This document shows positions 3,858-59,290 of a stretch of 64,000 nt of DNA, one piece after another (within the stretch, counting starts at the first letter, position 1; each line of letters opens with the position of its first letter). The DNA comes from Blastocatellia bacterium (GTDB lineage: Bacteria > Acidobacteriota > Blastocatellia > DASRDY01), in NCBI GenBank assembly GCA_035652355.1, contig DASRDY010000285.1, forward strand, positions 24,300 to 88,299, given 5' to 3'. The notes beneath the pieces were generated by a model. It worked only from the letters and a program-made list of their open reading frames with translations, had not been told where the DNA came from and made no database searches. The position numbers and the translations under genes were made by a program.

Positions 3858-4261
3858 CCACCTGCATATCTCTCCAAAATATTTGCCGGGTTATGTAACG
3901 TTGTCGAGCCGATTTCACATAATTTTCCATAACTGCTTCGTTTCTTTGGCCTCAGCGTAATTGCACCTTGGCTCCAACATTTTACCACGCCTATAATGCC
4001 CCCAGCCTTGGATAGTCTCATCCGACTCCAAGCGCAGTACCAATAGAGTCGAGAGATTCTAATTCACGATTTCTGCCCTTATCAGCGCCGAAAATGTCGG
4101 CGCGCGCGAGCCCAATCACCCGTGGTTTGCGCGAAACAGATTTGTAAAGCGAGAGATAACTTCTACAGCTTTTTGCCCAGGCGTTCCGACGCATCTGCCC
4201 TTAACACAAGGCGAAAAGTTTGGACACAACTGGGCAACCCCACTCTAAAAGAGGGAGATAT

Positions 4262-7200
4262 ATGAGAACTGCAAGGGTACTATTCAAGCCTATAATCTGG
4301 CTGTTATTGGTTGGCGTTGCTGCATTGGCAATGACATTCGGCGCTGATTTGCTGTCTGGCTCAGCAAAGGCCGCCGGTTTCGCTAATAGCGCGTCGTTTA
4401 CTCTGTTCAGTCCGCCGCCACCATTCGTTCGATGCGTGACGACGGGTGCAATCGACCCAAGCTGTAATGATACTCACACTACAATCCAGGGCGCGATCAA
4501 TGCTGCCTTGCCTGGCGATACCATTTTGATTGCGCCGGGCACGTATATTGAGCAAATCACCGTCAACAAGAACCTGACCATTACCACCACCGGACCAGGA
4601 GTTGTTATTCAGTCGCCATCCACTCCGCTGGTTCCCGATGCCGTTGGACAACTTAATATTGTCACGATAACGGGTGGCGTAAATGTCAGTATCAGCAACC
4701 TGGTAGTACTCGGTCCTGGTCCTGGTCCATGCGCAAGCATAAACTCGGGCATATTTGTCAGCGGCAACTCGGTTGCTTCGATCACCGGGCTAATTATTCC
4801 CGAGATTCACGATAACCCATTTGGCGGCTGCCAGAACGGCGTCGGCATCCAGGTCGGAAAACAGTCCGTTGCGCAACTCGGTCACGCCGTCATCACAAAC
4901 ACCGCCGTGAGCAATTACCAGAAGGCGGGCATTGTCGTTGACGGAACAGGATCCGACGCGACCATAACGGGCGATACAATCGACGGCCACGGTAATACGA
5001 CCTTGATCGCTCAAAACGGCATTCAGATCAGCCGCGGAGCGACAGCGATCGTCGATAACAACCTTGTTCAGGGAAATGAATTCGACGGCCCCGGCAGTGG
5101 CAGTGACATTCTAAACGATGTACAGTCGGTCGGTATCCTTCTGTTTAATGCCGGCGATGGAACTGTTATCGAAAACAACAACGTCACCGCTAATGACATC
5201 GGCATTTATGACCTTAACTTAGGCGCAGTGAACATCAACAATAACCACCTGACGATCAACCGGTATGGCGGAATCGTACAGGATCAGGGAACTGGTAACC
5301 TGAATCACAATACTGTCAGCGGTGGACTTCATTCTGTGTTCGTGGCTTCGTTTAGCGGGGCTACCGGCGATTCAATAGCGATCCTGAATGGCAACACACT
5401 CAGTCCGGGTCCTGGCGGAACGGCCCTCGACACTGGTGATGCCGACACAGGAGATGCGTTTGTTCCGTTCTTCCAGAACGTTTTCTGTGCGGCTCCTCCT
5501 GCGGGCCTCGTTAGCTGGTATCCTGGCGATGGAAATGCGACTGACGTTGCCGGTGGACACGATGGCACTTTGGTGGGTGGAGCGACCTTCTCCCCCGCAG
5601 GCGAAGTCGGGCAAGCATTCAACTTTAACGGCATCAACGCGGGCGTCAGCGTTCCCGATACGGCCAGTCTGAATTTTGGAGCAAATTCCGACTTCTCGAT
5701 TGACGCCTGGATCCACATTCCCACGAGCGCCAATCCGACTAAAACGGTTGTCGATATCGTCGATAAGCGCTCATTCAGTCCCAACCCGATGGGCTACTCC
5801 ATGTTCCTGCTGAATGGACAACTGGGTGTTCAGCTTGCGGATGGCGCTACTGTCCACAATTACGTCGGTCCGAGCACCGGTGAGTTGCGCGATGGGCAGT
5901 TCCACTTTGTTGCTGCAACAGTAACCAGGGCTTCCGCCGGAACTTTTGCGGTCAATCTCTACGTTGACGGTGTTTTGAAAGATACGATAACCAGCAATGC
6001 GATCCTCGGTGACCTGACAAATACCGGAGCTCTGCAGATTGCATTCAATCCCGATCCCGGTGTTCCCGCTGCAACGAAATTTGCTCCGGGACTGTTCGAT
6101 GAGATCGAGATTTTCAACCGCGCTCTGAGTTCGGCCGACGTTGCGTCGCTTTTTAATCCGTTGATTGCGGGCAAATGCAAGGTGACCGATGTCGGGCTCA
6201 CCAAAACGCACACAGGTACATTCACGGTCGGACTGACCGGGACATACAACCTGACGGTTACCAATGTCGGAACCCTCAGAGCAACTTCACCTATCACGGT
6301 TTCGGACACACTGCCCGCCGGTATGAGCTTCTTAGCCGTCGGTGCAGGATCTGATCCGGGTTGGCTCTGCTCTGGCTCGACAACCGTTAATTGTACAAAC
6401 AATACACAGTTGCCAGTAAGTGCTTCATTCCCGCTCAACCTTGACGTCACTGTGACGCAGGGCGGTGCAAGAACGAACAATGCCGTTGTTTCAATGTTCG
6501 GCGACAGCAATTCGGGCAATGACAACGCCAGTGACACACTGACGGTGGCAAAGGCAAATACAAACACAGCTCTCGCGTCATCGGTAAATCCGTCTGTCTT
6601 CGGTCAGCCGGTAACATTTACGGCAACCGTGACAGCGACAGGAATTACTCCTGTCGGCAACGTCGAATTCTTTGACGGCTTAACCTCGCTGGGCGTGTTC
6701 CCGACCTCCGGTGGAATTGCATCAGTTACGGTGTCAAACCTGAATGTAGGTTCGCACTCTGTCACTGCGCAATTCACTGATGGCGGCGATTTCAATAACA
6801 GCACCGCCAGCGCGTTAAATCAGGTCGTTAATCCTGCAAATACGAATACTTCACTGGTTTCGTCGGTTAACCCGTCTGTCTTCCAGCAGACAGTGACTTT
6901 CACCGCAACTGTCACAGTAGTACCTCCGGGTGGCGGAACGTTGTCAAACACCGTGACCTTCAGGGACGGCACGACTGTGATTGACGTAGTACCTATTGGT
7001 CCTGGTGGCGTTGCGACGACCACACGGAACTCACTGTCGGTCGGCAGCCATCCGATAACGGCTTCCTATAATGGAGATGGCGCTCATAACGGAAGCCTGT
7101 CCAATACCGTAGTTCAGATAGTGAACAAGGCTAATACCACATTGACGCTGACCTCGTCGGCCAATCCTGGGAATCCGGGCGGCATCGTGATGTTCACAGC

Positions 7201-35649: not shown

Positions 35650-36149
35650 TTCCTCTTCAGCTCCTAAATTGCTGTTATTGTTTTGTTAATGCTCTCAGGC
35701 GCGACTAGTTCCTCAGCGGAGCAAAAAGCCCACCCCGATTCTCATATCGGCAGGAACCTTGAAATGGTTAGAACAAGAAATAAGGTTGCGCGGCCAAACC
35801 TGACACGGGAAATTTATCGTCCGACGGATTGCGGAATCCCGATAAACGACCAGGTATGGTGGTTATCGGCAAAGTGATAATCGTGGCGTAGACTTTAGCC
35901 TGCGCCAAATATCGAACTTCCCGGGATCAATGGAAACAGCTCATGTGTGCCATTTTGTATCACAAGAAATCGAGTTTTGTTAAATGGTGTCACACTGTCA
36001 CAGCGAAGCGAAGCGCTTTACTTTCTATAGTTAAGGCTGTGACACCCCAGCGTGACGCTCAAAATCAGGGCCCAAGTGATGCCACGAGTTTGCGCGTTCG
36101 GGGATTCGATGCTATTAGTTCTAAAACCTGATTTCTGGAGATCGATGTT

Positions 36150-47162: not shown

Positions 47163-50100
47163 ATGAAGACATTGATTCGTCGTTTTGGATTCACCAGATT
47201 TGTTGTTCTGACGTTATGCATTACGTTCGTGTTGGTGCTGGTCAAGCGTGAATCAATGGTCCTTGCAACCAGCCTGTTTCATGCGGCGACATCGGGTCGC
47301 ACCCAAACCAAGGACAATACCCAGGCTAAAGATCACACTCAGCTTAAAGTTCTGAGTTCTGTCAAAGTTCGGCCGACATCTATAGCGAAGCCGATGATCA
47401 AGCTTCAGGACAGTCGCGAGCTTTCATCTGACAGCGCGAGCGCTGTGGGTACATCGCATCAATCACTGGCGCTTAACTCGCCCATAGCAGGCTCGCTCAG
47501 ACCTGCCGATTCGATTTATAGTTCTCTGCGGCAAGCGGGCGCACGGCCGCTCGCCCTGGCGACTGCGGATATTAATCGGGACGGATTCCCCGATCTGATT
47601 ACAGGCTACGCGACTTCCGGGGGCGGAGTATTGATGTTGCGGTGGGCCAACGAGCAGGCCTATGCTCCCAGCGATCCGGCTGTCCTCGAAGGTATTAGAC
47701 AGCGCCGGTTTCCCAATCCATTCTTTGATGATGGGGCCACGATCGAACTGCCCGAAGCTCCTGATTTTGTATTAACCGGTGATTTCAACCATGACGGCAT
47801 AGTGGATGTTGTGGTTGCCGCCAAGGGCAGCAATGCGTTCTACCTCCTTGCGGGGGATGGACTGGGCGGATTTTCCGCTCCGACGCGCAAAGAATTGCCA
47901 GGCGCGGTAACGGCAATGACTGCGGGAGAGTTCGGCGCCCAGGATGGCTCGATGGACCTTGTTATAGGCGTCAATGGCTCCGGGGGATCTTCAGTACTGA
48001 TTTTCGATAAACACGAGAGCATTATCGATTCCACTCCTGAGGTTCGCGGTATATCAGGGTCGATCACGACATTGGCGCTGGGTTCACTTGATGGCGATCA
48101 ATTCAACGATCTTGCCATACTGGCGGGAGGCAGGCTGAGTGTTCTGCACGGCCAGGATCGCCTGGAAGGAGTGGATTCAGCAGCGACAGCCAGGCTTGAG
48201 AGCATTCCGTTATCGTTTGCTCCTAAATCATTTTCGCTGGGGAATTTCATCTGGGACCGTGAGGATAAGACTGAGATAGCCGTAATGTCGGCCGATAATC
48301 AGGTTCACATTCTTGCCCGCGGCAGTCTTGACGTTCGTCCCTTTACAGAAGAGGAAGTTCTGGCGAGTCGCAAGGACAAAGAAGCAAAAACCATTGCGAT
48401 GGCGAACGGTACTTATGTCGCGCCGGTTCTGAGCCAGTCGGCGGCAAACCAAAAATGGGCAATTGCGGAAGATGTTCCGGTTGAATCGACTGGAGTCGGC
48501 AATTCCGCGCCAATCCTGCTTACCACCAGAATGTCCTCCGTTCCTGCGGATGATCTGCTGGTCAAGGTTCCTGGCGGCACCCAAATTCAGGTTATGTACA
48601 AAGACACGAATCAGTCGGTAACTCGTAGCCGCACCAGCGGACGAGTGATGACTGGTAGAACTCCCGTGACGCTTGATTCAGCCAGCGAACCAGTCGCGGT
48701 ACTGCCGATGCGGGTCAATGTCGATGGTCGACCTGGTCTGGTTGTAATGAGCCAGGGTAATGTGACCGCTTCAGTTATAATGCCTGAAGGCGGCACCACC
48801 ATCACGGTCAACTCTGCCACGGACGTTATTCACAGTCCCGGATGCGCAACGACTGGCACAGGTACTTGTTCGCTCAGGGATGCGATTATCTTCTCGAACG
48901 CCGATACGGGCGCCGCAGATACGATTGTTTTCAGCGTTGGTATTAATCCAACTTTAACCATATCCAGTGGAGGCGCGGCGGAAAACAATGCGCAATCCGG
49001 AGATTTGGACATTAATCGCAGTGTTACCATAACCGGGAATGCTCCTACGACAGTCAGTACTACGTTCGATAATACCTGCGGCGACTGCAAGGTTTTCGGA
49101 ATCGATCAGACGGGTTTATTCCCTGGCGAGACTGTAAGTATGTCTGGTCTTACGATCCAGAATGGTGTTAATCACGGAAACGCAGGTTCGATTTGCGGTA
49201 CGTTCTTCGAAACGGGCGGCGGCATTGACGTCTTTTTCAAATCCTCTGGAAATTCCTTCACGTTGACGAATTCAACAGTAACAAACAATAGAACCGACCT
49301 TTGTGTGGCTGCCGGGCAGCATAGTCACGGCGGTGGCATCAACATCGATAGCAATAATCAGGCAATTGTAGGGGGCGCCAGCGCCGGTACGGCAACATTA
49401 ACTAATGTTACAGTCAGCAATAATATCGCGGGTCTTCAGGCTGGCGGAATTGGTCTTTTAGCGGACGTCCACAACGTGAACTTGACCAACGTTACAATAA
49501 CTGGCAACCAGAGCCAGCATTCAGATGGAGGCGGAGTATTCGTTTTACACAGCTTTGGTGGAACCGATACGTTTTCCAACGGATCGGTCTCGAGTAACAC
49601 GTCAGATGGGATAGGCGGTGGAGTTGAAATTGACGGTAATCAGGTAGTCAATTTTACAGGGACGACTTTTACCAGCAATACCGCCACTGGCACCGGCGCG
49701 AGTTCATTGGGCGGTGGGCTTGCCATTACCAACATTGGAGCGGCAGGCGTTACCGGAAGCACATCATTAACGAACTGCACCATAGATAGTAACCACGCCA
49801 ACAACGGCGCAAATTCAGGTGGTGGTGGTGTCTATTTCAACGGGGGTTACTCGTTGACTATTTCCGCCTGCGATATTAAAAACAACACCGGCGGTCAGGG
49901 TGGGGGTATTTTCAACGGTGGCAGCAACAGCTCGCCTGGCAGCACTGTAACGATAAATAATCTGACACTTATACACGGCAATTCAGCCGTCACCACTGGC
50001 GGTGGCAACGGAGATGGCGGAGGTATTGCAAACGGCCAAATCGGTGGAGCTGGGACTCAGTCTGGAACCATCGTAACCAAAACTCATATATTCGGAAACA

Positions 50101-53100
50101 CGGCGGCTAACAATGGTGGTGGTATCGCAGTTGGTCCTTTGACTAATGGAGCGACGTTTTCGATGAGCTTTAGCCGAATTGTTAATAACACTTCTAACGC
50201 TGCGACCAATCACGGAATCGAGGTTAATGGCACGAACGCAGTTGCGAGTGTGGCCGACAACTGGTGGGGTTGTTCGCAGAATCCGATCGGCAGTACTCAG
50301 TGCGACTCTGCGCACGCGACATCCGGAACGCTGACGGTTACCCCATTCCTGCAGATCACCAATTCGGCGGCGCAGAATCCGATTAAAGTTGGAGCAACCA
50401 CGACTCTGACTGCTACGGTTCAGGATTCGAACGGAATAAATCAGTCGTCAGCCAATTTGGACGTCTTTATTACCAGCAATGCAACCGCTGGAACCCCGTT
50501 GCCTGTAACCTGGAGCGCTGCGACAAACTCAATCACAATTGACGCGAACAGCTCGCCGCTTAAGAACGTCGGCGGAGTCGTTCAGGTGACGGCCACATAT
50601 AACGGGACAAATCCTGTGCATCATGATCCGGCGGCGGCCAAGGTCGATAACGATTTCACGACCGGATCGCATCCGAATGTGGTTTTGATGACTGTCCTCT
50701 CGCCGCCTAGCATTGCAAAAGCGTTCGGATCGCCAAATGTTGCGATAAACGGTGCACCAAACACGACGACTTTGACGTTTACGATAACAAACCCGAATGT
50801 GGGCGACGGGTTGAATGGACTTGCGTTTACAGATACCTTCGCGCCTGGCGCGGCAAATATCAAAGTCGCATCTCCGCCCAATGCATCGACCACTTGCGGC
50901 GGCGGAACGGTGACGGCGGTTGCAGGCTCAGGCTCCGTTTCATTGAGCGGTGGCACGATCGGCATAAATACTACTTGTACCGTTACCGTCACTGTTCAAG
51001 GCCAAGCTCCTGACGGTACAGCTAATAACACCAGCGGGAATGTTACGGCCACCGATGCGGGTGGTTTGACTGGCAACACTGCCAGTGCCAGCACGCTTGT
51101 GGCCGATGCGCCAACTATCGCAAAACTATTCGGCGCCGCTACAATACCGCTGAACGGCACCACGTCGTTGACATTCACTCTTCAGAATACGAACGCGAAT
51201 ACAGCGCTGAGCGGAGTCGCGTTTAGCGACACTCTGCCCGCTGGATTGACAGTCGCTACCCCAGGAAACCCGAGCACCAACTGCCCAGGCGGAACTGTTA
51301 CCGCTACGAATGGGTCATCGAGCATAACCCTCTCGGGTGCATCGCTCGCAACCGGGGCAACTTGCACTGCAACGGTTACCGTTCAGGGAACAACAGCCGG
51401 AGTGAAGAACAACACGGCATCCGCTTCATCTACGACTACGGGTGCTCTTACTAATTCGACAGGTACGGTTCCAATAACAGTTGTGGCGCCGCCGACGATC
51501 AGCAAGGCATTCGGTGCGCCCAGCATACCATTGAACGGCACGACAACGATGACCTTCACGATTACCAATCCGAATACCACGGTTGGTTTGAGTGGACTCG
51601 CATTTAGCGACACATTCCCATCAGGTCTGCAGGTGGCAGCGACACCGGGCGTGGTCAATAACTGCAACGGGACCTTCACTCCGGCAGCAGGTGATACTAC
51701 GGTCAGCCTCTCAGGAGGGACGGTCGGTACCAATACCTCCTGTACTATCACGGTTAATGTAACCGGAACAACAGCAGGTGCGATGGCGAATATAACCGGA
51801 GCGATTTCGTCGACCGAAGGCGGAACGGGCACAACCAGCAACACGGCAACGCTCAATGTGTTTGCGCCTCCTACAATTTCCAAGGCGTTTGGTGTCTCGA
51901 CGATAGCGGTCAATGGTACGACATCTCTCACCTTCACAATTACAAACCCGGCCTCGAATCCAGGGGCATTGACAGGTATTGGTTTTACCGATTCTCTGCC
52001 TGCGGGACTGGTGGTCGCGACGCCTAATGGGTTGTCAAACACTTGTAATGGTACAGTGACGGCGGTCGCCGGATCAGGTTCGATAACCCTGAATAACAAC
52101 GGCAGCATCACCACTCCTGGTACTACCTGTACGATCCAGGTAAATGTTACCGGCACCACTTCCGGGGTGAAAAACAACACAACCGGTGCTATATCATCGA
52201 CCAATGGCGGAACCGGCGCAACCAGTAACACTGCCACTTTGACGGTCGCATCGCCGCCGACTATTAGCAAGGCTTTCGGCGCGGCGACGATTCCGCTAAA
52301 CGGCACAACGTCAATGACGTTCACGATCAGCAATCCAAACTCGATTGGACTAACCGGTCTTGCGGTTTCGGATACTCTTCCGGCAGGTTTGGTTGTTGCA
52401 ACTCCGAACAACCTGAGCAATTCATGTAATGGCAGCGTGACGGCTACATCGGGTACAAATTCGGTGAGCCTGTCTGGCGGCACGATAGCGGCCAGTCCTG
52501 CTACCTGTACAGTGTCTGTAGATGTTCAGGGCACAACGGCCGGTGTGAAGAGCAACACTACTACCGCAATCACTTCTACTGAAAGCGGACCCGGCACAAC
52601 CAGCAACACCGCGACAGTAACAGTGGTAGCACCGCCTACAATCAGCAAGGCGTTCGGCGCTGCCAGTGTGGCGGTCAATGGCAGCACGACGTTGACATTC
52701 ACGATAAGTAATCCTAACGCTACAGTCAGCCTGACGGGCCTGGCATTTAATGACAGCTTCCCGTCGGGTCTTCAGGTAGCATCGACACCTGGCGTCGTCA
52801 ACAACTGCGGTGGGACCTTTACTGCGAATGCTAATGCGACATCTGTGAGCCTGTCGGGTGGCACGGTTGGTACTGGCGGGTCGTCGACTTGTACAATAAC
52901 AGTCAATGTTACCGGTACATCGGCAGGCGCGAAGGCCAATACTACTGGCGCAGTCTCCTCGACTGAGGGCGGAACCGGCGCAGTCAGCAACACCGCGACA
53001 CTAAACGTGTTTGCTCCGCCGACGATCAGCAAAGCATTTGGTACTAGTCAGGTCCCGCTCGGTGGAACTACGACCCTGACCTTTACGATCACTAATCCGG

Positions 53101-56100
53101 CGGCTAATCCCGGTGGGCTAACAGGAATCGGCTTCACGGATACGCTGCCAGCGGGGCTTGTTGTCGGAACGCCGAACAATCTCTCGAACACCTGCAGCGG
53201 TACCGTAACCGCGACTGCCGGGTCGAGTTCGATATCCCTTAATAACAACGGCAGCATCGCTACGCCGGGGAATACCTGTACGATTCAGGTAGATGTGACG
53301 GGAACTACCTCGGGAGTGAAAAACAATACCACAGCCGCGATTACATCGACCAATGGCGGCACAGGCGCAACCAGCAATACCGCGACGCTGACGGTGGCGT
53401 CCCCGCCGGTCATCTCGAAGTCGTTTACTCCTTCGACGGTAGGGGTAAATGGTTTCTCGAGCCTGTCATTTACCATTCAAAATAACAACAATGCGGGTTC
53501 GCTGACTGGTGTAGGCTTCACCGACAATCTGCCTGCAAACCTGGTTGTGTTCACTCCGAATGGATTATCGGGAAGCTGCGGAGGCGGCACAATCAGCGCA
53601 GTGGCGGGATCATCGACGATCAGCCTTACGAATGCGACTCTGCCTGCAAGCAGCAGTTGTACTTTCTCTGTTGCTGTAACGCCGGAAACGGTCGGGACAT
53701 TCAACAACACAACAACTAATGTTACATCCAACGAGGCAGGCAACGGCAATCAGGCCAGCGCCACGCTTACCTCGCTGAATCCTCCTAGCATTGCCAAGTT
53801 CTTTGGCGCTCCGCGCATCGATGTGGGAACTTCCACTTCTCTGACTTTCCAGATCGACAACTTCAACGGCGCTGATTCTCTTACGGGAGTGCACTTCCTG
53901 GATACTTTGCCTTCAGGTTTGAGGGTAGCTACTCCCAATGGCGTAAGCGGCAACTGCGGTGGTGTGGTTGTTGCGAATGCGGGATCCAGCACGATCAGCC
54001 TGACGAACGGTAGTCTTGCGCCCGGGGCTAATTGCAGCTTCAGCGTCAATGTCACGGCAATCAGCGGAGGCACTCAGGTCAACGTCACTGGCAACGTCAT
54101 TTCCACCAATGGCGGCTCGGGCAACACAGCCACTGCTCAGATCGATACCTGCAGTTATGTGGTCTCACCAGTTTCGCTGTCATACCCAATATCGGGTGGC
54201 ACGGGCACGGTGACAGTGACGCCCAACATCGGGACCTGTTCATGGACAGCAGTCAGCAATGACAGCTTTGTCCACATTACCAGTGGAGCCGGACCAACAA
54301 CTGGCAACGGCAGTGTGCAGTTCACTGTCGACAACTCAGGCGGCACACCAAGAACCGGAACGATGACCATTGCCACAAACACCGTGGTGGTGGATCAGAC
54401 CAATCCGACTGCGATCAATCTCAACAGCTTCACCGCCACCAAGATCGGATCGGCAACGCTGCTGAAGTGGCAGACCGGTATGGAAGTTCACAACCTTGGT
54501 TTCAACATCTACCGGGATGACAATGGTCAGAAGGTGCAGATCAATCCTTCTCTGATTGCCGGATCAGCACTGAGAGTGGGAATGAATACCAACGTGCAGT
54601 CAGGCTTCGGCTACTCCTGGGTTGATCATTCGGGCGGCGGCAGCTACTACCTTGAAGACGTCGATCTCAACGGCACCAGCACCCTGCACGGACCGTTCAG
54701 TGCCACATCGGGCACTGCAGATTTGACCGCCAATTCGATGATGCTCTCAGAGGTCAACAGCGCCGCGGCACAGAGCTATTCACTGCAGCGAGGCTATCCT
54801 GCAGGAGTGGAGATCAGCTCAGGCAGTGCGTCCTCTGCTGATACGACTGCAAGAACAGCGGGAAGAAGCCCGAACCGACCCGCGACTGTCAGCAACGCAC
54901 TGAAGAAGCAGTGGTCGATAGCTTCGCAATCGGCAGTGAAGATCGGAGTGAACAAGACGGGCTGGTATCAAGTCAATGCTGTTGATCTGTTCACGGCGGG
55001 ACTCGACACCGCCGCGAAACCCGGCAACCTGCAGATGTTTGTGGGCGGAGCAGAGGTACCGATCAAGGTCAATGCCGCCAGTTCGGATCATCTGTCAGTG
55101 GGAGACACAATCGAGTTCTACGGAGCTGCGCTTGATACTACTACCGCCAATACCCGGGTCTACTGGCTGACATCAGGAACTTCAGCAGGCAGACGAGTGG
55201 GCAGTGTCACTGCCTCGGCAAGCTCAGGTAATGGCGGATCATTCGCTTACACCGTGGAGCGGCAGGACAAGAGCATCTACTTCTCCGGTCTGCTCAATGG
55301 AGAGGCCGAGAACTGGTTTGGCGCCCTGGTTAACACCACTCCCGCAACACAGAACCTGACCATCAACCATCTGGATCAGAACTCCGCTGATCCTGCTGTG
55401 ATAGAGGTAGGGCTGCAGGGAGCGACAGGATCGCTGCACAACGTGACGGTGATGCTGAACGGAACAGCGATTCAGAACATCAACTTCAACGGACAGGCGC
55501 ATCAGGTGGTACAGATAGAAGTACCGCAAAGTGGGCTGGTTGAAGGCAATAACACGGTAAGCCTTGCTGCTGCGGCAGGCGGAGACATCTCGCTGGTGGA
55601 TTATGTGAAGATTACCTACGCACACAGCTATCAGGCAGAGAACAACAGCCTGTTCACCAACGTACCGGCCAATCAGGCGGTGAGCATCACAGGCTTCACA
55701 TCGAATCAGATCAGAGCCATCGATGTCAGCAATCCACTGCAACCACTGGAACTGCAGGGAGCGATAGATACATCGGATGCGAATATCTCCACGATCAGCC
55801 TGGTTACCGGCAAACAGAGCAACCTGATTGCGTTCACGCCCGATCAGATGCTCAGTCCGGTGTCTATCACCGCAAACAATCCTTCATCTCTCAATCAAGG
55901 AGGAGCGGGAGCCAACCTGGTGATCATCGGCTACAGAGACTTCCTGCAGAGCGTACAGCCGCTGGTGGCGCTAAAACAGAGCCAGGGCTACGCGGTAGCA
56001 GTAGTGGATGTAGAGGACATCTACGATGAGTTCAGCTATGGAGTGCATTCGCCACAGGCGGTGAAGGACTTCCTCAGCTGGAGCTATCTGCACTGGCAGA

Positions 56101-56924
56101 AGCAGCCACAGTACGTGATGCTGGCGGGAGACGCTTCATACGATCCGAAGGGTTATCTGGGACTGGGCAATCAGGACTTCGTGCCGACGAAGCTGATAGA
56201 CACTGCCAATATGGAGACAGCCAGTGACGGCTGGCTGGTGGATTTCAACAATGATGGCACAGAGCAGATGGCCATAGGCCGACTACCGGTACGAACAGCG
56301 GCGGATGCCACGGCAATGGTCAACAAGATCGTTGCCTACGAGCAGACAGGCACAGCGCAGACGATGGTGCTGGTGTCAGACCTTAACGATGGGCTGGACT
56401 TTGCGGCAAGCAATGCTCAGATCGGAGCAATGGCGCCGTCGCAGATGTCTGTAGTCAATATAGTGAGAGGACAGACAACAACAGATGCCAGGACGGAATT
56501 GCTGGATCAATTGTCGCAGGGTGGCCGAATAGTGAACTATGCGGGACACGGGTCGGTGAACCTGTGGCGAGGGAATCTGCTGACGAACGATGATATGTCT
56601 GTGCTAACCAACAGCAAGACATCGGCGCTGGTAGTGACAATGACCTGTCTGAACGCCTATTCACTGGATTCGAGACTGCCAAGCCTTGGAGAAGCGTTGC
56701 TGAACGTAAAACAAGGCGGAGCAGTATCGGTGTGGGCATCGACAGCAATGACCGATATGAGCAACCAGAGCGGAATGAACCAGGCGTTGTTCCGGCAGTT
56801 GCTGGGAAACAGTCAGATCACCATAGGAGACGCGATCAGAACAGCGAAGAAGACAGAGCCGAATAATGATGTAAGAAGGAGCTGGATGCTGTTCGGCGAT
56901 CCGACAATGAAGATAAAGCAGTAG
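47163..56924 (+). CDS. Giant (3253 aa) secreted/anchored protein: FG-GAP propeller + beta-helix + 9 DUF11-like repeats + BACON-like domain + C-terminal peptidase C25 (gingipain-like) domain
   Basis: AAGGAG RBS. The N-terminal anchor is FVVLTLCITFVLVLV. FG-GAP/VCBS-type blades are present (DINRDGFPDLITG, GDFNHDGIVDVVVAA, LDGDQFNDLAIL). The hallmark CSLRDAIIFSNADTGAADTIVF is followed by G-rich beta-helix turns. Nine ~127-aa repeats follow, then CSYVVSP..GGTGTVTVTPNIGTCSWTAVSND (BACON-like). The C25-like end has VIIGYRDFLQSVQPLVALKQSQGYAVAVVDVEDIYDEFSYG, YAGHGSVNLW (His) and LVVTMTCLNAY (Cys). Confidence 0.85.
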   Translation: MKTLIRRFGFTRFVVLTLCITFVLVLVKRESMVLATSLFHAATSGRTQTKDNTQAKDHTQLKVLSSVKVRPTSIAKPMIKLQDSRELSSDSASAVGTSHQSLALNSPIAGSLRPADSIYSSLRQAGARPLALATADINRDGFPDLITGYATSGGGVLMLRWANEQAYAPSDPAVLEGIRQRRFPNPFFDDGATIELPEAPDFVLTGDFNHDGIVDVVVAAKGSNAFYLLAGDGLGGFSAPTRKELPGAVTAMTAGEFGAQDGSMDLVIGVNGSGGSSVLIFDKHESIIDSTPEVRGISGSITTLALGSLDGDQFNDLAILAGGRLSVLHGQDRLEGVDSAATARLESIPLSFAPKSFSLGNFIWDREDKTEIAVMSADNQVHILARGSLDVRPFTEEEVLASRKDKEAKTIAMANGTYVAPVLSQSAANQKWAIAEDVPVESTGVGNSAPILLTTRMSSVPADDLLVKVPGGTQIQVMYKDTNQSVTRSRTSGRVMTGRTPVTLDSASEPVAVLPMRVNVDGRPGLVVMSQGNVTASVIMPEGGTTITVNSATDVIHSPGCATTGTGTCSLRDAIIFSNADTGAADTIVFSVGINPTLTISSGGAAENNAQSGDLDINRSVTITGNAPTTVSTTFDNTCGDCKVFGIDQTGLFPGETVSMSGLTIQNGVNHGNAGSICGTFFETGGGIDVFFKSSGNSFTLTNSTVTNNRTDLCVAAGQHSHGGGINIDSNNQAIVGGASAGTATLTNVTVSNNIAGLQAGGIGLLADVHNVNLTNVTITGNQSQHSDGGGVFVLHSFGGTDTFSNGSVSSNTSDGIGGGVEIDGNQVVNFTGTTFTSNTATGTGASSLGGGLAITNIGAAGVTGSTSLTNCTIDSNHANNGANSGGGGVYFNGGYSLTISACDIKNNTGGQGGGIFNGGSNSSPGSTVTINNLTLIHGNSAVTTGGGNGDGGGIANGQIGGAGTQSGTIVTKTHIFGNTAANNGGGIAVGPLTNGATFSMSFSRIVNNTSNAATNHGIEVNGTNAVASVADNWWGCSQNPIGSTQCDSAHATSGTLTVTPFLQITNSAAQNPIKVGATTTLTATVQDSNGINQSSANLDVFITSNATAGTPLPVTWSAATNSITIDANSSPLKNVGGVVQVTATYNGTNPVHHDPAAAKVDNDFTTGSHPNVVLMTVLSPPSIAKAFGSPNVAINGAPNTTTLTFTITNPNVGDGLNGLAFTDTFAPGAANIKVASPPNASTTCGGGTVTAVAGSGSVSLSGGTIGINTTCTVTVTVQGQAPDGTANNTSGNVTATDAGGLTGNTASASTLVADAPTIAKLFGAATIPLNGTTSLTFTLQNTNANTALSGVAFSDTLPAGLTVATPGNPSTNCPGGTVTATNGSSSITLSGASLATGATCTATVTVQGTTAGVKNNTASASSTTTGALTNSTGTVPITVVAPPTISKAFGAPSIPLNGTTTMTFTITNPNTTVGLSGLAFSDTFPSGLQVAATPGVVNNCNGTFTPAAGDTTVSLSGGTVGTNTSCTITVNVTGTTAGAMANITGAISSTEGGTGTTSNTATLNVFAPPTISKAFGVSTIAVNGTTSLTFTITNPASNPGALTGIGFTDSLPAGLVVATPNGLSNTCNGTVTAVAGSGSITLNNNGSITTPGTTCTIQVNVTGTTSGVKNNTTGAISSTNGGTGATSNTATLTVASPPTISKAFGAATIPLNGTTSMTFTISNPNSIGLTGLAVSDTLPAGLVVATPNNLSNSCNGSVTATSGTNSVSLSGGTIAASPATCTVSVDVQGTTAGVKSNTTTAITSTESGPGTTSNTATVTVVAPPTISKAFGAASVAVNGSTTLTFTISNPNATVSLTGLAFNDSFPSGLQVASTPGVVNNCGGTFTANANATSVSLSGGTVGTGGSSTCTITVNVTGTSAGAKANTTGAVSSTEGGTGAVSNTATLNVFAPPTISKAFGTSQVPLGGTTTLTFTITNPAANPGGLTGIGFTDTLPAGLVVGTPNNLSNTCSGTVTATAGSSSISLNNNGSIATPGNTCTIQVDVTGTTSGVKNNTTAAITSTNGGTGATSNTATLTVASPPVISKSFTPSTVGVNGFSSLSFTIQNNNNAGSLTGVGFTDNLPANLVVFTPNGLSGSCGGGTISAVAGSSTISLTNATLPASSSCTFSVAVTPETVGTFNNTTTNVTSNEAGNGNQASATLTSLNPPSIAKFFGAPRIDVGTSTSLTFQIDNFNGADSLTGVHFLDTLPSGLRVATPNGVSGNCGGVVVANAGSSTISLTNGSLAPGANCSFSVNVTAISGGTQVNVTGNVISTNGGSGNTATAQIDTCSYVVSPVSLSYPISGGTGTVTVTPNIGTCSWTAVSNDSFVHITSGAGPTTGNGSVQFTVDNSGGTPRTGTMTIATNTVVVDQTNPTAINLNSFTATKIGSATLLKWQTGMEVHNLGFNIYRDDNGQKVQINPSLIAGSALRVGMNTNVQSGFGYSWVDHSGGGSYYLEDVDLNGTSTLHGPFSATSGTADLTANSMMLSEVNSAAAQSYSLQRGYPAGVEISSGSASSADTTARTAGRSPNRPATVSNALKKQWSIASQSAVKIGVNKTGWYQVNAVDLFTAGLDTAAKPGNLQMFVGGAEVPIKVNAASSDHLSVGDTIEFYGAALDTTTANTRVYWLTSGTSAGRRVGSVTASASSGNGGSFAYTVERQDKSIYFSGLLNGEAENWFGALVNTTPATQNLTINHLDQNSADPAVIEVGLQGATGSLHNVTVMLNGTAIQNINFNGQAHQVVQIEVPQSGLVEGNNTVSLAAAAGGDISLVDYVKITYAHSYQAENNSLFTNVPANQAVSITGFTSNQIRAIDVSNPLQPLELQGAIDTSDANISTISLVTGKQSNLIAFTPDQMLSPVSITANNPSSLNQGGAGANLVIIGYRDFLQSVQPLVALKQSQGYAVAVVDVEDIYDEFSYGVHSPQAVKDFLSWSYLHWQKQPQYVMLAGDASYDPKGYLGLGNQDFVPTKLIDTANMETASDGWLVDFNNDGTEQMAIGRLPVRTAADATAMVNKIVAYEQTGTAQTMVLVSDLNDGLDFAASNAQIGAMAPSQMSVVNIVRGQTTTDARTELLDQLSQGGRIVNYAGHGSVNLWRGNLLTNDDMSVLTNSKTSALVVTMTCLNAYSLDSRLPSLGEALLNVKQGGAVSVWASTAMTDMSNQSGMNQALFRQLLGNSQITIGDAIRTAKKTEPNNDVRRSWMLFGDPTMKIKQ
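50703..54147 (+). repeat. Nine in-frame tandem coding repeats of ~381 nt (~127 aa) inside the giant gene
   Basis: Each unit reads PPxIxKxFG..(I/V)..NG.T.LTFTIxNPN...LTGxxFxDxLPxGLxVATPxxxxxxCxGTVTAxxGxxxIxLxxGxIxxxxxCTxxVxVxGTxxGxxxNxTxxxxSxxGGxGxxSNTATLxV, with one conserved Cys pair. Units 3/6 and 4/7 are much more alike than neighbouring units. Confidence 0.85.
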
Positions 56925-57060: not shown

Positions 57061-57537
57061 ATGAGCAAGAAAGAGACGAAGCCCTGCGCCAGGAGCAAGG
57101 GACTGGTGGTACAAAAGCTGGAAGGAGAAGTGCTGGTCTATGACACAGAGAAGCAGCAGGCGCACTGCCTCAATGGAACGGCCGCACTGATCTGGGAGCA
57201 GTGTGATGGAACGAGAACAGTGAAGGAACTTGCCGGTCTGCTTCGAGGAGATGTAACAGAGCGAGAGAGGGAAGAGCTGGTCTGGATCGCGCTTGAAGAG
57301 CTAAACAGATCAAATCTGTTGGAAGAGCCGCTGGCACGACCATCAGCCATAAGCGGACTCAGCCGAAGACAGATGCTGAAGGCAGCCGGGGTTGCGGCCA
57401 TGATCGCGGTTCCTGTCGTGAGCACAATAGTAGCACCAAAAGCAGCACAGGCATCGACTTGTCTTCCGACCAGCGCCGGTTGCACGATCAGCGCTCAATG
57501 TTGCAGCGGTATCTGCTCTGGCGGCGCGTGTGCGTAA
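57061..57537 (+). CDS. PqqD-like (RRE-type) domain fused to a Tat-motif hydrophobic segment and a 27-aa six-cysteine C-terminal peptide
   Basis: GGAG lies 5 nt before the ATG. The PqqD pattern is LVVQKLEGEVLVYDTEKQQAHCLNGTAALIWEQCDGTRTVKELAGLL..LEELNRSNLL. Then come SRRQMLKAAGVAAMIAVPVVSTIVAPKAAQA and STCLPTSAGCTISAQCCSGICSGGACA. Confidence 0.7.
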   Translation: MSKKETKPCARSKGLVVQKLEGEVLVYDTEKQQAHCLNGTAALIWEQCDGTRTVKELAGLLRGDVTEREREELVWIALEELNRSNLLEEPLARPSAISGLSRRQMLKAAGVAAMIAVPVVSTIVAPKAAQASTCLPTSAGCTISAQCCSGICSGGACA

Positions 57538-57560: not shown

Positions 57561-57598
57561 ACGCAACAGGGACCTTGTGGGTGCCCTGTTGCGTTTTT
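57561..57598 (+). terminator. Rho-independent terminator
   Basis: ACGCAACAGGG (57561-71) - 12-nt loop - CCCTGTTGCGT (57584-94) is followed by TTTTT. It sits 24 nt after the stop at 57537. Confidence 0.8.
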
Positions 57599-57647
57599 CC
57601 TCCTACCAATCTGCGTAACTAACGAACTGCAAATCGCCGAATACCTG

Positions 57648-57989
57648 TTACTGCAACAGCTTCAGCTTTTTAAAAAATAAACCATCATTGGTTGGTCCAA
57701 CCGCAACAGCGGTCATTTCATTATTGAAATCCTCTTCGATAAAGCTCTCACATATCCGTCCATTTGATTCGATCTGATTTCCCCAGAAATCAAGTTCTTT
57801 TTCATCCTTGACGCCCAGAAGAACCAGTGTTCTATCATCTTCAGCCCACTTTTGAATCTAAGGATCGTCGCCATGACGCGAAATCAGATTTGCCAGCGCG
57901 TGACACGCCTGAACCGCTCTTTGGGCCCAGCATAAATCCTGGCGAACCAGGATATACACTTTCAATTTGCCGCAAGATTTTTCAGCCAT
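57648..57989 (-). CDS. PTH2-family (peptidyl-tRNA hydrolase 2-like) gene, 113 codons, with one in-frame TAG at codon 44 (57858..57860). It is either read through by the adjacent tRNA(CUA) or a nonsense pseudogene.
   Basis: My hand translation is MAEKSCGKLKVYILVRQDLCWAQRAVQACHALANLISRHGDDP[TAG]IQKWAEDDRTLVLLGVKDEKELDFWGNQIESNGRICESFIEEDFNNEMTAVAVGPTNDGLFFKKLKLLQ*. Family-like sequence is present on both sides of the TAG. ATG 57989 overlaps the upstream ORF's stop (ATGGCTGA). The gene is missing from the ORF track because neither half reaches 60 aa from a start codon. Confidence 0.6.
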
Positions 57990-58515
57990 TTTCTTCCTCC
58001 TTTAACGTCTTGCGGCTCGCCAGCGACGATTCGATGTGAGCCAGCTTTTCCGATCGATTTTTTAACCTGTTATCTATTTTCTTCAGATAACGGTAAGCCT
58101 GAATACAAATATATCGCTCTTTGCCTCTTCTCGCGTGGTGGCATAACCCTCCGTCTCGGATATTCCTTTGAAGCGCTTTGAATTCCGGAATATGCTCATC
58201 ATTCAATTTCAAAATAATCCGCGCGGTTAGCAGCACGGATGCGCGCCGCTTTGCCGAGATGTAGAGTTTCCAATCCGGATGTTTCTGAGACATATAACCG
58301 GTCCGCTTTTCGTAGCTCACCTTTGCCAGCTTCCACGCGGATACGGCCGTTGCTCTACGAGAGTTTCGGTTTACGAACGACTTTCCGTCAGGAGATACGT
58401 AGGCGATGTTTTCAAATGTTTCTCTGACTAAATTCTGATTTTTCAGCCTGTGAATCTCTTCCGATTGTTTACTGACGTAATATTGAAAAACCTGTGTTAT
58501 TGATACCATTGTCAT
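57982..58515 (-). CDS. Hypothetical 177-aa Lys/Arg-rich protein
   Basis: AAAGGA RBS lies before ATG 58515. No family is recognised. The gene is translationally coupled to the PTH2-like frame. Confidence 0.6.
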   Translation of the reverse strand: MTMVSITQVFQYYVSKQSEEIHRLKNQNLVRETFENIAYVSPDGKSFVNRNSRRATAVSAWKLAKVSYEKRTGYMSQKHPDWKLYISAKRRASVLLTARIILKLNDEHIPEFKALQRNIRDGGLCHHARRGKERYICIQAYRYLKKIDNRLKNRSEKLAHIESSLASRKTLKEEENG

Positions 58516-58786
58516 GTCCTTTCATATCAATTCGGCCAATTACTTACCTGATTTGTCGATCAGGCCGTTAAAGACACGGCAATGGCGGTCAAGGTGGACG
58601 AGCTACCTACAACATATCTTCCTCCAATGGGATTGAGTTAACCGCTGGACGGACACCACTGACGATCAATCCTGAGGCGCACAGGATTGCGACGGGACAA
58701 TTAAACTTCTGAAGGTAAAATCGAACTCGATTGTCAGCGGGTATGCGAGTTGGGATCTACGTGAAGACCATAATAATAATTCCAGA

Positions 58787-58858
58787 TGCGCCCTGTGGGA
58801 TTCGAACCCACACCCTGGCGCTTTAGAGACGCTTGCTCAACCATTGAGCTTAGGGCGC
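58787..58858 (-). tRNA. tRNA with anticodon CUA (amber/UAG-reading suppressor type); amino-acid identity undetermined
   Basis: The reverse complement is GCGCCCU-AA-GCUC-AAUGGUU-GAGC-A-AGCGU-CUCUAAA-GCGCC-AGGGU-GUGGG-UUCGAAU-CCCAC-AGGGCGC-A. All four stems pair, with one A.C and one U.G in the anticodon stem. G18G19, U33, A37, the T-loop UUCGAAU and the G53-C61 pair are present, and the 5-nt variable loop makes it class I. Atypical features are A8 and U21. CCA is not encoded. Confidence 0.8.
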
Positions 58859-58869
58859 TAAACAAAAAG

Positions 58870-58899
58870 AGTATAAGCGACAAATCCGGCCGGAATCAA
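58870..58899 (-). promoter_or_regulatory. Sigma70-like promoter for the CUA tRNA
   Basis: On the minus strand, TTGATT (58899-94) - 18 nt - TATACT (58875-70). The -10 element ends 11 nt before tRNA position 1. Confidence 0.5.
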
Positions 58900-58983
58900 G
58901 GAAATGATTTTCGTCAGGTTCGGCGGGCAAACGAAAGTCAGGCAGACCGGGAACAGCAGCTGTGATGTGACGTCACCTGGCTG

Positions 58984-59184
58984 TTATATCTGATGAGCGT
59001 AAATCTGCTCGTCGTTCAATATATTTGCCTGCCTAAAATAATTGAAGCATTCGCGAAGACTCCATTCAGGATTGTTATCCTGTATCTTCGCAACCTGGCT
59101 CAGTTCATTCCGTTTGTGCTCAGTCAGGGCTTCGAATGAATCGAATGTTGATTCGCAAAGGTGACAACGATATATGTAAGCCAT
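58984..59184 (-). CDS. Hypothetical 66-aa protein with a CxxC...H zinc-ribbon-like N-terminus
   Basis: A strong AGGAGG RBS lies 6 nt before the ATG. The N-terminus is YRCHLCESTFDSFEALTEHKR. No family is recognised. Confidence 0.55.
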   Translation of the reverse strand: MAYIYRCHLCESTFDSFEALTEHKRNELSQVAKIQDNNPEWSLRECFNYFRQANILNDEQIYAHQI

Positions 59185-59290
59185 ATCCAGCCTCCTGGCT
59201 CCGACAATCTCTGTATAAGAGAAATGCTCTAATCCCTGTCTTTTTTATCGTCGTTAGCCGGGGTGGCCTTTAAGAAAATAGGGGCCTAAA

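Follow-up and report, generated by a model that had tools for sequence, protein, structure and literature searches.

Why should a bacterium that uses TAG as an ordinary stop codon carry a gene with a TAG inside its reading frame, and why should a transfer RNA (tRNA) capable of reading that codon lie upstream of it on the same strand? These questions are raised by a 64,000-nucleotide (nt) stretch of contig DASRDY010000285.1 from a Blastocatellia bacterium (NCBI GenBank assembly GCA_035652355.1), which is referred to here in its whole length as the window. In it, a tRNA with anticodon CUA, or tRNA(CUA), is followed by a gene for an orphan basic protein of 175 amino acids (aa) and by a gene related to peptidyl-tRNA hydrolase 2 (PTH2-like) that is interrupted by a single TAG. 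Amber suppressor tRNAs of standard-code bacteria are usually regarded as accidental anticodon mutants. The original prediction, which was made from the letters of the window, proposed that the tRNA and the interrupted gene form a TAG-gated circuit or, alternatively, the remnant of a stop-codon-recoded mobile element. Comparison of the window with its relatives points with high confidence to a UAG-read-through cassette that is functional and under selection, and not to a broken gene or a decayed tRNA. The leader that separates the tRNA from the 175-aa gene contains two very short open reading frames (ORFs), here called mini-ORFs, and contributes one strand to a predicted RNA helix that would mask a ribosome-binding site; these leader elements are new and go beyond the earlier account. 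The elements of the cassette, in the direction in which they are read, are the following:

58870..58899, minus strand: promoter-like site TTGATT-N18-TATACT, located by a promoter scan and ending 11 nt before position 1 of the tRNA.
58787..58858, minus strand: class I tRNA of 72 nt with anticodon CUA in the loop CUCUAAA, called by ARAGORN and Rfam; a putative amber suppressor.
58757..58771, minus strand: mini-ORF 1, ATG GTC TTC ACG TAG (M-V-F-T-UAG).
58616..58756, minus strand: spacer of 141 nt, open in the read-through frame of mini-ORF 1, which is also the frame of mini-ORF 2.
58589..58615, minus strand: mini-ORF 2, ATG TTG TAG GTA GCT CGT CCA CCT TGA (M-L-UAG-V-A-R-P-P-stop), with its UAG at 58609..58607.
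58569..58587, minus strand: 5' strand of the predicted helix, beginning 2 nt after the stop of mini-ORF 2.
58504..58522, minus strand: 3' strand of the predicted helix, spanning the Shine-Dalgarno sequence AAAGGA, the spacer and the AUG (58509) of the 175-aa gene.
57982..58509, minus strand: gene for the orphan basic protein, 175 aa (177 aa from the upstream ATG at 58515), stop TGA.
57648..57989, minus strand: PTH2-like gene of 113 codons, matching PF01981, the start of which overlaps the stop of the 175-aa gene (ATGGCTGA).
57858..57860, minus strand: in-frame TAG, codon 44 of the PTH2-like gene, a conserved column.

TAG is a normal stop codon of the host. It terminates 16 of the 41 gene-sized ORFs of the window, including all seven genes that the original prediction had named as ending in TAG, and the extension from these stops to the next in-frame stop is not shorter than that past the TAA or TGA stops of other window genes. 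A scan of the whole window for TAG-interrupted frames returned no further credible gene, in keeping with the earlier claim that only one such gene could be found; three other frames (3451-3828, 3933-4265 and 35784-36131) were dismissed, as their translations are junk. Since TAG closes 16 of 41 genes of the window and interrupts only the PTH2-like one, the host uses the standard genetic code.

The PTH2-like gene was originally described as a 113-codon frame, running from 57989 to 57648 and interrupted by TAG at codon 44, in which both sides of the TAG read as one PTH2-type domain, and a profile check bears this out. The TAG is the sole stop within the frame, and with an X placed at codon 44 the profile PF01981 is matched in one stretch across it (residues 9-104 to profile positions 1-104 of 115), with a score of 41.1 bits against a cut-off of 23 that places the product in the PTH2 superfamily. 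Searched against solved structures, a family profile aligns with Pth2 along its entire length (24bt_A, E 2.8e-11; 2zv3_A, E 1.1e-10), and the product also matches the phage families phrog_1866 and phrog_3668. It does not reach the NCBIfam equivalog cut-offs (29.8 vs 82 bits for TIGR00283 and 28 vs 126 bits for NF003314). The catalytic DAG-T motif had been reported as lost; the GK and TQ loops of the catalytic region are indeed shortened or deleted, but in the family alignment the acidic residue D87 is nearly invariant and T93 is invariant, with a shortened loop between the two, and a plain loss of the region is not what is seen. The protein is predicted to adopt a Pth2-like fold, and its activity is a prediction only.

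Relatives of the cassette can be recognized by the 175-aa protein. In its 177-aa form, from 58515 to 57982, this basic ORF had been called in the original prediction and is real, being identical to an annotated protein of a Blastocatellia metagenome-assembled genome (MAG; P0001); its homologues begin at the second ATG, at 58509, which gives 175 aa. The family consists of 49 clusters, all named members of which come from Blastocatellia, Pyrinomonadaceae or Acidobacteriota, and a metagenome scan with the family yielded only three short loci. Seven distinct loci have enough flanking sequence for comparison (the window, L017, L021, L025, L027, L030 and L031), and L026 is a near-duplicate of L031. 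Source, identity to the window protein, position of the tRNA and the gene that follows are given below:

L017, ENA, 61%: tRNA upstream; next gene PTH2-like with the TAG.
L021, NCBI Acidobacteriota MAG, 46%: tRNA upstream; next gene TatD.
L025, JGI, 46%: tRNA upstream; next gene TatD.
L026, JGI, 37%: no tRNA in the 1.1 kb upstream; the contig ends inside the gene.
L027, Logan, 36%: tRNA downstream; next gene PTH2-like without the TAG.
L028-30, Pyrinomonadaceae MAG, 34%: tRNA downstream; next gene PTH2-like with the TAG.
L031, ENA, 37%: tRNA downstream; next gene PTH2-like with the TAG.
L022 and L023, ENA, fragments that do not cover the tRNA flank: PTH2-like gene with the TAG.

A tRNA or tRNA-like gene with the loop CUCUAAA is found within 400 nt of the cassette in all seven distinct loci. 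In four of them (the window, L017, L021 and L025) it precedes the cassette and has a -10 box of its own; in L027, L030 and L031 it comes after the PTH2-like gene. The 175-aa protein appears to be the invariant core protein of the cassette; the PTH2-like gene is absent from L021 and L025, where, after a gap, there is an apparently independent TatD gene. TatD was rejected as a cassette member, having its own gap, a terminator-like hairpin before it and the look of a housekeeping gene. At L025, positions 2-103 form a near-perfect GC-rich inverted repeat of about 100 nt, which may be an element resembling repetitive extragenic palindromes or a terminator upstream of the cassette; its match to MIR169_6 (54.7 bits, at the gathering score) is a false positive.

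The TAG of the PTH2-like gene occupies the same column in six of the seven Acidobacteriota PTH2-like genes (the window, L017, L022, L023, L030 and L031), and L027 alone has a sense codon, TCA, there. In L017, L022, L023, L030 and L031 the gene follows the 175-aa gene directly, with overlapping stop and start. The sequence around the TAG varies among them: GAT CCT TAG ATT in the window, GAT CCG TAG TTG in L017, GAA CCG TAG ATG in L022, GAT TCA TAG ATG in L023, GAT CCA TAG TTG in L030 and GAT CTG TAG CTG in L031. Given that the same column is found in independent ENA and NCBI assemblies, an assembly error is refuted as the cause of the TAG. Among the four closest orthologues, synonymous divergence (pS) is 0.58-0.86, which is saturated, and nonsynonymous divergence (pN) is 0.04-0.12 N-terminally and 0.16-0.37 C-terminally, indicating that both halves of the gene are under purifying selection. 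Because a neutral TAG would not outlast saturated synonymous divergence, the TAG itself is selected. A plain nonsense pseudogene, in which orthologues carry a sense codon and the window copy shows decay, is likewise refuted by a TAG kept in six of seven genes and selection on either side of it. A word-based search with the PTH2-like protein found no match, but an exhaustive HMMER search did find homologues, 596 in number, which are mostly uninterrupted and of about 100-115 aa. In the uninterrupted proteins the residue at codon 44 is variable (S, L, Q, A, R, F, G and others); the codon falls in the loop after the first helix, at a position that tolerates many residues.

The tRNA is the only one that ARAGORN finds in the window. 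It is called with anticodon CTA, and the 'Pyl' (pyrrolysine) label that the program attaches to it follows from the anticodon alone. Rfam recovers it as a tRNA (RF00005) at 63.5 bits, against a gathering score of 29, with E 9e-13 and alignment to model positions 1-71 of 71, and detects no RNA family besides tRNA between 57000 and 60000; the 72-nt cloverleaf with anticodon CUA that had been folded by eye is thus found by both programs. It has A73 as discriminator and no encoded CCA. In the window and in every cassette tRNA the anticodon loop is the 7-nt CUCUAAA with CUA as anticodon, U33 and a purine at 37, as is appropriate for an amber suppressor. The upstream, orthologous tRNAs of the window, L017, L021 and L025 score 59.9-68.3 bits, and that of L017 has a compensatory C1:G72 in place of G1:C72. 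The downstream tRNA of L031 scores 42.6 bits and has CCA encoded. Six of the seven cassette tRNAs reach the Rfam gathering score; the L030 element fails to do so. This last element, a tRNA-like sequence with loop CUCUAAA at 4878-4962 that ARAGORN miscalls as tRNA-Phe(AAA), may be a non-canonical (allo-tRNA-like) suppressor.

As to isotype, the original prediction had considered a mutated Arg-type tRNA, on account of an acceptor stem likened to that of E. coli argU; the identity elements of tRNA-Arg, which we take to be A20 and C35, are absent from the window tRNA. In BLAST searches against phages, E. coli and plasmids the tRNA showed no more than the general resemblance among tRNAs, leaving the isotype unsettled, and an exact-pattern search for the tRNA body with a free anticodon had no match in viral or metagenome contigs. 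tRNAPyl has a 3-nt variable loop, a 6-bp anticodon stem and a small D loop without G18G19, and lacks the T-Psi-C consensus. The window tRNA has G18G19, a UUCGAAU T loop, a 5-nt variable loop and a 5-bp anticodon stem, and is not built like tRNAPyl.

The -10 box of the promoter-like site ahead of the tRNA, TATAnT, is invariant in the window, L017, L021 and L025, and equivalent -10 boxes precede mini-ORF 1 in L027 and L030. A scan of this kind finds no more sites than it does in shuffled sequence; the TTGATT-N18-TATACT site had already been read 11 nt upstream of tRNA position 1 in the original prediction, and it was recovered by the scan at that place. Three atypical features of the tRNA, A8, U21 and an A27.C43 mismatch, had been listed as possible caveats. 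All are present, the 27:43 pair being the sole non-standard one in the Rfam alignment, and as signs of decay they carry little weight: U21 is common to four close relatives, the A27.C43 mismatch is shared by the window and L017, and A8 is private to the window copy, the relatives having U8. An unpaired 27:43 has been reported to enhance UAG read-through by CUA tRNAs (PMC13092985), and A27.C43 is therefore not a sign of decay. Suppressor tRNAs have been found in only about 0.3% of standard-code bacterial genomes (PMC13092985).

The 270 nt between the tRNA and the 175-aa gene, in which conserved islands stand out, contain two further UAG codons, one in each mini-ORF. Mini-ORF 2 has a GGAGG Shine-Dalgarno sequence (58625..58621) 5 nt before its ATG. 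Its peptide, with the UAG given as an asterisk, is ML*VARPP in the window, L017 and L027, ML*RSRPP in L021, ML*KPRPP in L025, ML*ARRPP in L030 and ML*ANRSP in L026 and L031. The pattern is therefore M-L-UAG-x-x-R-(P/S)-P-stop, with eight codons and a stop in all seven distinct loci, and it is maintained by synonymous codons: TTG, TTA or CTG for Leu, CGT, CGC or AGA for Arg, and CCA, CCG, CCT or CCC for Pro. Because a switch between CGN and AGA together with third-position changes speaks for selection on the peptide, the codons that follow the UAG carry the signature of translation. Translation past this UAG would therefore require a UAG-decoding tRNA.

In the four leaders that can be aligned, RNAalifold predicts a long-range helix of 15 pairs between the segment that follows mini-ORF 2 and the Shine-Dalgarno sequence, spacer and AUG of the 175-aa gene. 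The duplex has a predicted energy of -21.3 kcal/mol in the window compared to -8.0 +/- 2.5 for shuffles, and of -15.9 to -22.8 kcal/mol across all seven distinct loci and L026, compared to -7 to -10 with shuffled partners; a share of 0-0.004 of the shuffles paired as well or better. The pairing segment is 16–22 nt long and the helix begins 1-2 nt after the stop of mini-ORF 2 in each of the seven distinct loci. When 380 windows were slid along the 420 nt upstream, the segment that pairs best with the ribosome-binding site starts no more than 5 nt from that stop in every locus, and no window more than 20 nt away from it pairs better. The two strands also covary between clades, with CCAUUG/CAAUGG in the window clade versus GUCAU/AUGAC, and with GUCAUUCGGUUC/GAACCGAUGAC in L030, GUCAUCGUUC/GAACGAUGAC in L031 and AAUCGUU/AACGAUU in L027. 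A mini-ORF with its own Shine-Dalgarno sequence and a sequestering helix at the end of that mini-ORF are what define a leader-peptide attenuator, and both are found here.

Mini-ORF 1, which also ends in UAG, is M-(V/A)-F-T-UAG in L017, L021 and L025; in L027 and L030 it is longer, still ending F-T-UAG with synonymous codons (TTT ACC and TTC ACA). Beyond its UAG, the read-through frame meets no stop across the spacer in five of six loci (shuffle P 0.03-0.13 for the individual loci), and in the window, L017 and L021 this frame coincides with that of mini-ORF 2. The idea that the spacer encodes a real protein was discarded, as its peptide sequence is not conserved. In L027 and L030 the spacers contain terminator hairpins with U-runs (-20.0 and -25.1 kcal/mol; z -5.0 and -3.4), and the open read-through frame passes through them, which suggests read-through-dependent anti-termination and hence self-activation of the tRNA in these two loci.

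Taken together, these elements suggest the following mechanism. The promoter would drive tRNA(CUA) and, by co-transcription, an RNA with the two leader mini-ORFs, the 175-aa gene and the PTH2-like gene, the latter being translationally coupled. This RNA would present three UAG gates: mini-ORF 1, mini-ORF 2 and codon 44 of the PTH2-like gene. At the first, read-through would carry ribosomes across an otherwise untranslated spacer. At the second, the position of the ribosome would decide. The mRNA channel of the bacterial ribosome covers roughly 7-9 nt past the A-site codon. The helix begins 20 nt after the UAG of mini-ORF 2, and a ribosome terminating at that UAG, which is codon 3, would end about 11-13 nt short of it and leave it closed. 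A ribosome that has read the UAG and holds the distal stop in its A site would instead overlap the first 6-8 pairs of the helix, those that hold the AUG, and would free the start site. Pro before a stop codon is a poor termination context, and TnaC ends in R-P-stop. A dwell at the distal stop is probable, with termination predicted to be slow after Arg-Pro-Pro; the R-P-P or R-S-P ending fits slow termination, from which we infer stalling, and that exactly five sense codons always follow the UAG is in keeping with a constraint on spacing. Output of the 175-aa protein would then be proportional to UAG read-through, and because the PTH2-like gene is coupled to the 175-aa gene through the ATGGCTGA overlap, it would depend on the UAG of mini-ORF 2 as well as on its own; its output should be steeper still, as one extra read-through event is needed. 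We regard unmasking of the ribosome-binding site by UAG read-through as somewhat better than an even bet, and charging of the tRNA, stalling of the ribosome and the direction of feedback are, like the roles of the proteins, what we infer from the arrangement.

Several observations weigh against this account, or against parts of it. The spacer of the window has no terminator, only an 8-bp hairpin with no U-run (z -0.14), and so does not look like a transcription attenuator; because of this, gate 1 is speculative in the window. In predicted folds of several loci the Shine-Dalgarno sequence of mini-ORF 2 can pair with the CCNCC Pro codons of the same mini-ORF, and part of the conservation of these codons could act at the RNA level. 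The window tRNA, with A8, a U31.G39 pair and the A27.C43 mismatch, could be weaker than those of its relatives. Between clades the tRNA bodies differ strongly while the anticodon arm is constant; the tRNA of L027 scores only 32.7 bits and has a reduced D arm, and the L030 element, below the Rfam threshold, has an acceptor stem of about 10 bp. An ATG directly follows the TAG of the PTH2-like gene in L022 and L023, and TTG or CTG follows it in L017, L030 and L031, making termination and then reinitiation at this TAG conceivable. Finally, the leader comparison consists of just seven distinct sequences, and the footprint argument uses general ribosome geometry, not that of this organism.

Of the two possibilities put forward originally, the TAG-gated circuit is the one that the data support, with a conserved TAG, selection on both halves of the gene and a CUA tRNA in every locus with enough flank. 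A remnant of a recoded mobile element finds no support here, given that there are no phage genes at the locus, TAG is a normal host stop and the elements are intact and selected. The pairing of a PTH2-like gene with a suppressor nonetheless appears to have phage relatives. A scan of IMG/VR with an alignment of the PTH2-like subfamily recovered 26 loci (L032-L057), of which 22 are distinct, mostly on contigs of 50-460 kb. A suppressor tRNA lies within 2.7 kb of the PTH2-like gene in 16 of the 22 distinct loci, a count made without matched control genes, and the anticodons are CUA in 12, UUA in 2 and UCA in 2. In 11 viral loci the tRNA is on the same strand, 0-436 nt after the PTH2-like stop, as it is in L027, L030 and L031; viral PTH2-like genes placed before a suppressor tRNA include L035 2501-2858, L040 2501-2878 and L053 2501-2874. 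Seven distinct viral PTH2-like genes have an in-frame stop and it is always TAG, located at the codon-44 column in L032 (…YLTDP-TAG-VQDW…) and L033 (…HRDDP-TAG-VKNW…) and in the same loop in four more. Those that lie beside a tRNA(CUA) end in TAA or TGA, never in TAG. Because suppressor tRNAs for all three stop codons adjoin viral PTH2-like genes, the subfamily thus appears to be a general partner of stop-codon suppressors, and UAG gating appears to be recurrent.

Other features of the viral loci may be recorded here. L041 and L054 have an additional M-K-M-T-TAG near the start of the PTH2-like gene, which in L054 (about 2470-2500) reads M-K-M-T-TAG-V-Q-M-Q-P with the same ACG TAG context as mini-ORF 1 (TTC ACG TAG). 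In L034 (4554-4904) and L038 (3780-4165), genes for transfer-messenger RNA (tmRNA), with tags ADDYYTEVALAA and ADDYYTDFAKAA, lie beside the PTH2-like gene and tRNA(CUA), which suggests a clustered kit for read-through and ribosome rescue. The PTH2-like homologues of two cultured phages, Vibrio phage D479 and Xanthomonas phage Xoo-sp13, are not linked to a tRNA, and neither the 175-aa family nor the UAG-sensing leader was found in viral contigs.

The 175-aa protein has a pI of 10.1 with 36 Lys and Arg residues, and its predicted structure (pLDDT 81) is a helix, a three-stranded sheet and four helices. No family in Pfam, NCBIfam, PADLOC or PHROG includes it, structural comparison with the PDB and with viral models turned up no informative neighbour, and in PADLOC-DB neither it nor the PTH2-like protein nor a neighbouring zinc-finger protein has a match at E <= 0.1. 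Our confidence in any physiological role for the cassette proteins is low. In the role that we prefer, both would deal with the suppressor tRNA or with what read-through leaves behind. As a hydrolase of peptidyl- or aminoacyl-tRNA, the PTH2-like enzyme would serve either in recycling after drop-off and non-stop events or in limiting suppression, and such hydrolysis would explain how a host with about 40% TAG stops tolerates a suppressor. It is possible, although we would not call it likely, that the hydrolase, common to large phages and Acidobacteriota, is a suppressor-tRNA-specific 'governor', which deacylates the tRNA or recycles its peptidyl forms and, being made only via suppression, sets the level of read-through; in Blastocatellia it would have been joined with the basic protein and a leader that measures read-through to form a switch for genome-wide stop-codon read-through.

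A different reading of the same parts is that the cassette monitors release factor 1 (RF1), with a constitutive low level of tRNA(CUA) competing against it, such that a fall in RF1 would lead to read-through of the leader UAGs and thereby turn on the 175-aa protein and the PTH2-like hydrolase as a back-up or rescue response to ribosomes idling at UAG. At any UAG tRNA(CUA) and RF1 compete, and the leader necessarily reports their ratio; the fold of a peptidyl-tRNA hydrolase suits ribosome rescue and recycling after drop-off; and a tmRNA gene stands beside the PTH2-like/tRNA(CUA) pair in the phage loci L034 and L038. A precedent exists in prfB, where a frameshift at UGA senses RF2. We consider this reading unlikely, however, as the 175-aa protein lacks a GGQ motif and does not resemble ArfA, ArfB or release factors, and the downstream tRNAs of L030 and L031, lying in the same gated operon, have the look of self-activation and not of a constant probe.

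A role in defence, in which the leader would detect the foreign suppressor tRNAs of recoded phages and the two proteins would be effectors that either neutralise the suppressor or make the infection abortive, draws on the fact that phages with suppressor tRNAs are common and that the PTH2-like subfamily is tied to them. The cassette also occupies differing chromosomal contexts in different genomes, and its GC content is 0.44-0.48 (57600-59200) compared to about 0.55 for most of the window; as evidence of horizontal acquisition the latter is weak, because the adjacent mltG is similarly low at about 0.46-0.49. An anti-phage sensor is very unlikely in our estimation: the cassette's own tRNA(CUA) would trigger it constitutively, the proteins have no PADLOC matches, the 175-aa family is absent from viral contigs and there are no defence genes among the neighbours.

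Should the TAGs instead be genuine stops, the PTH2-like gene would yield polypeptides of 43 and 69 aa by reinitiation, the mini-ORFs would be minigenes of two and four codons, and the tRNA would be otherwise employed or inactive. Two-codon minigenes with strong Shine-Dalgarno sequences are known from the bar sites of phage lambda, which interact genetically with Pth, and the ATG, TTG or CTG right after the TAG in L017, L022, L023, L030 and L031 could serve reinitiation; in the window, however, the codon after the TAG is ATT. That the five codons past the UAG of mini-ORF 2 vary synonymously with an invariant total length, that the helix is placed relative to the distal stop and not to the UAG, and that the strict linkage to a CUA tRNA and the phage suppressors of all three stops would be left unexplained make this reading scarcely probable.

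That tRNA(CUA) inserts a non-canonical or pyrrolysine-like amino acid, with the 175-aa protein involved in charging or delivery, is highly improbable: the 'Pyl' label of ARAGORN, the diverse tRNA bodies with a constant anticodon arm, which would fit recognition that bypasses the normal identity elements, and the basic, orphan nature of the 175-aa protein are set against a tRNA without the tRNAPyl architecture, a cassette without a synthetase-like or biosynthetic gene, a 175-aa protein without an enzyme-like fold, and a position 44 that is a variable surface-loop residue. A nonsense pseudogene beside a dead mutated tRNA, or an inert remnant of a recoded prophage, is hardly credible, for although the window tRNA has A8, U21 and one mismatch and the region is lower in GC than most of the window, the TAG and all other elements are kept across synonymously saturated lineages with both halves of the gene under purifying selection, no phage genes are present, TAG serves as a host stop, and orthologues 34-72% identical are not near-identical copies of a recent element.

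Each part of the cassette resembles something already known. Like amber suppressors of the supE/supF type and other 'Sup' tRNAs, the tRNA is a CUA cloverleaf in a host with TAG stops; known amber suppressors are treated as anticodon mutants that rescue nonsense, whereas this one appears to be a conserved, dedicated gene in an operon with selected UAGs. With the leader attenuators of ermC/ermB, secM-secA, mifM-yidC2 and rtpLP-rtpA, the leader shares a short ORF with a Shine-Dalgarno sequence and a sequestering helix that is opened by the position of a ribosome, and mini-ORF 2 is Pro-rich at its stop much as TnaC ends in Arg-Pro-stop. Those attenuators sense a drug, secretion force or amino-acid supply, whereas here RF1 termination would be weighed against suppressor decoding, with stalling only proposed. 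An early in-frame stop that senses the efficiency of termination is also found in prfB, which differs in using a frameshift and no suppressor tRNA to regulate RF2; here read-through would regulate an orphan gene and a PTH2-like gene. The lambda bar minigenes share a very short ORF with a strong Shine-Dalgarno sequence (AUG-UUG-UAG if the UAG terminates) near a Pth-type gene, but in mini-ORF 2 the codons past the stop appear to be under coding selection and the mini-ORF is coupled to a masking helix.

Among UAG-decoding systems, the pyrrolysine cassette (pylT, pylS and pylBCD) likewise clusters a UAG-decoding tRNA with dependent genes; in contrast, the present cassette, to which the search for pylS was confined, contains neither PylS nor PylBCD, its tRNA has canonical features that tRNAPyl lacks, and it does not imply a special amino acid. 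Recoded phages, such as code 15 crAss-like phages, Lak phages and others, share a tRNA(CUA) and genes with in-frame TAG in a standard-code host (bioRxiv 10.1101/2021.08.26.457843, PMC9523058, PMC10879173). The window locus is chromosomal and has in-frame TAG inside cassette genes only; with 16 of 41 genes ending in TAG and MltG, RuvX and S41 peptidase genes as neighbours, it is not a recoded phage or prophage. Finally, Pth2 (PF01981; 2zv3, 1rzw and 1q7s) has the same fold over the whole length (E 2.8e-11 to 6e-4), with an acidic residue and a Thr in the DAGxT region; the PTH2-like protein is shorter, at about 105 aa, with the GK loop and the TQ-loop deleted, and its activity is a prediction. 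A pyrrolysine system, a recoded prophage, a known defence system and an orthologous Pth2 were each ruled out by tRNA or gene content, TAG usage, PADLOC and NCBIfam, respectively. Full-text literature searches found no published description of such a cassette, and the phrase 'peptidyl-tRNA hydrolase' was not found in the recoded-phage papers retrieved. The parts resemble known systems and the combination was not found described.

The surroundings of the cassette in the window include the following features:

58984-59184, minus strand: zinc-finger protein of 66 aa with one C2H2-type finger (PF13912, 23.9 bits, just under the cut-off).
57061-57537, plus strand: PqqD-like protein of 158 aa with a PqqD-like domain (E 5e-8), a twin-arginine signal and a Cys-rich C-terminal tail.
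57563-57595, plus strand: strong hairpin ACGCAACAGGG…CCCTGTTGCGT followed by a T-run.
47163-56924, plus strand: giant protein of 3253 aa with many DUF11-like repeats, stop TAG.

The zinc-finger gene lies between mltG and the tRNA and is found at the same place in L017 (3869-4069), which is syntenic with the window (S41 peptidase, RuvX, MltG, the small C2H2 zinc-finger protein, then the cassette); the other cassette loci lack it. A scan of species-representative genomes with MltG gave relatives no more than 42% identical, with no tRNA nearby in any of them. The PqqD-like gene is convergent with the cassette, and its Cys-rich tail, CLPTSAGCTISAQCCSGICSGGACA, has weak matches to conotoxin and UPF0506 families; the protein may be a recognition element for a ribosomally synthesized and post-translationally modified peptide fused to a knotted peptide. 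The hairpin probably terminates transcription of the PqqD-like gene, and the transcript of the cassette may end there too. Read-through of the TAG that ends the 3253-aa gene would append just nine codons.

We know of no other natural leader peptide in which a regulatory stop codon is read by a linked tRNA. If confirmed, the leader described here would be the first of its kind and a natural counterpart of synthetic 'amber-gated' circuits, and its tRNAs, leader and two proteins, being compact, could be tried as parts in synthetic biology. The pairing of a PTH2-like gene with a suppressor tRNA is a candidate factor in the stop-codon recoding of phages. For the Blastocatellia and their relatives, the locus points to a conserved, regulated suppression in free-living bacteria, with a cis-acting device that appears to measure read-through, and the question of how cells and phages control or tolerate a suppressor when a third or more of host genes end in the very stop that it reads is now testable.

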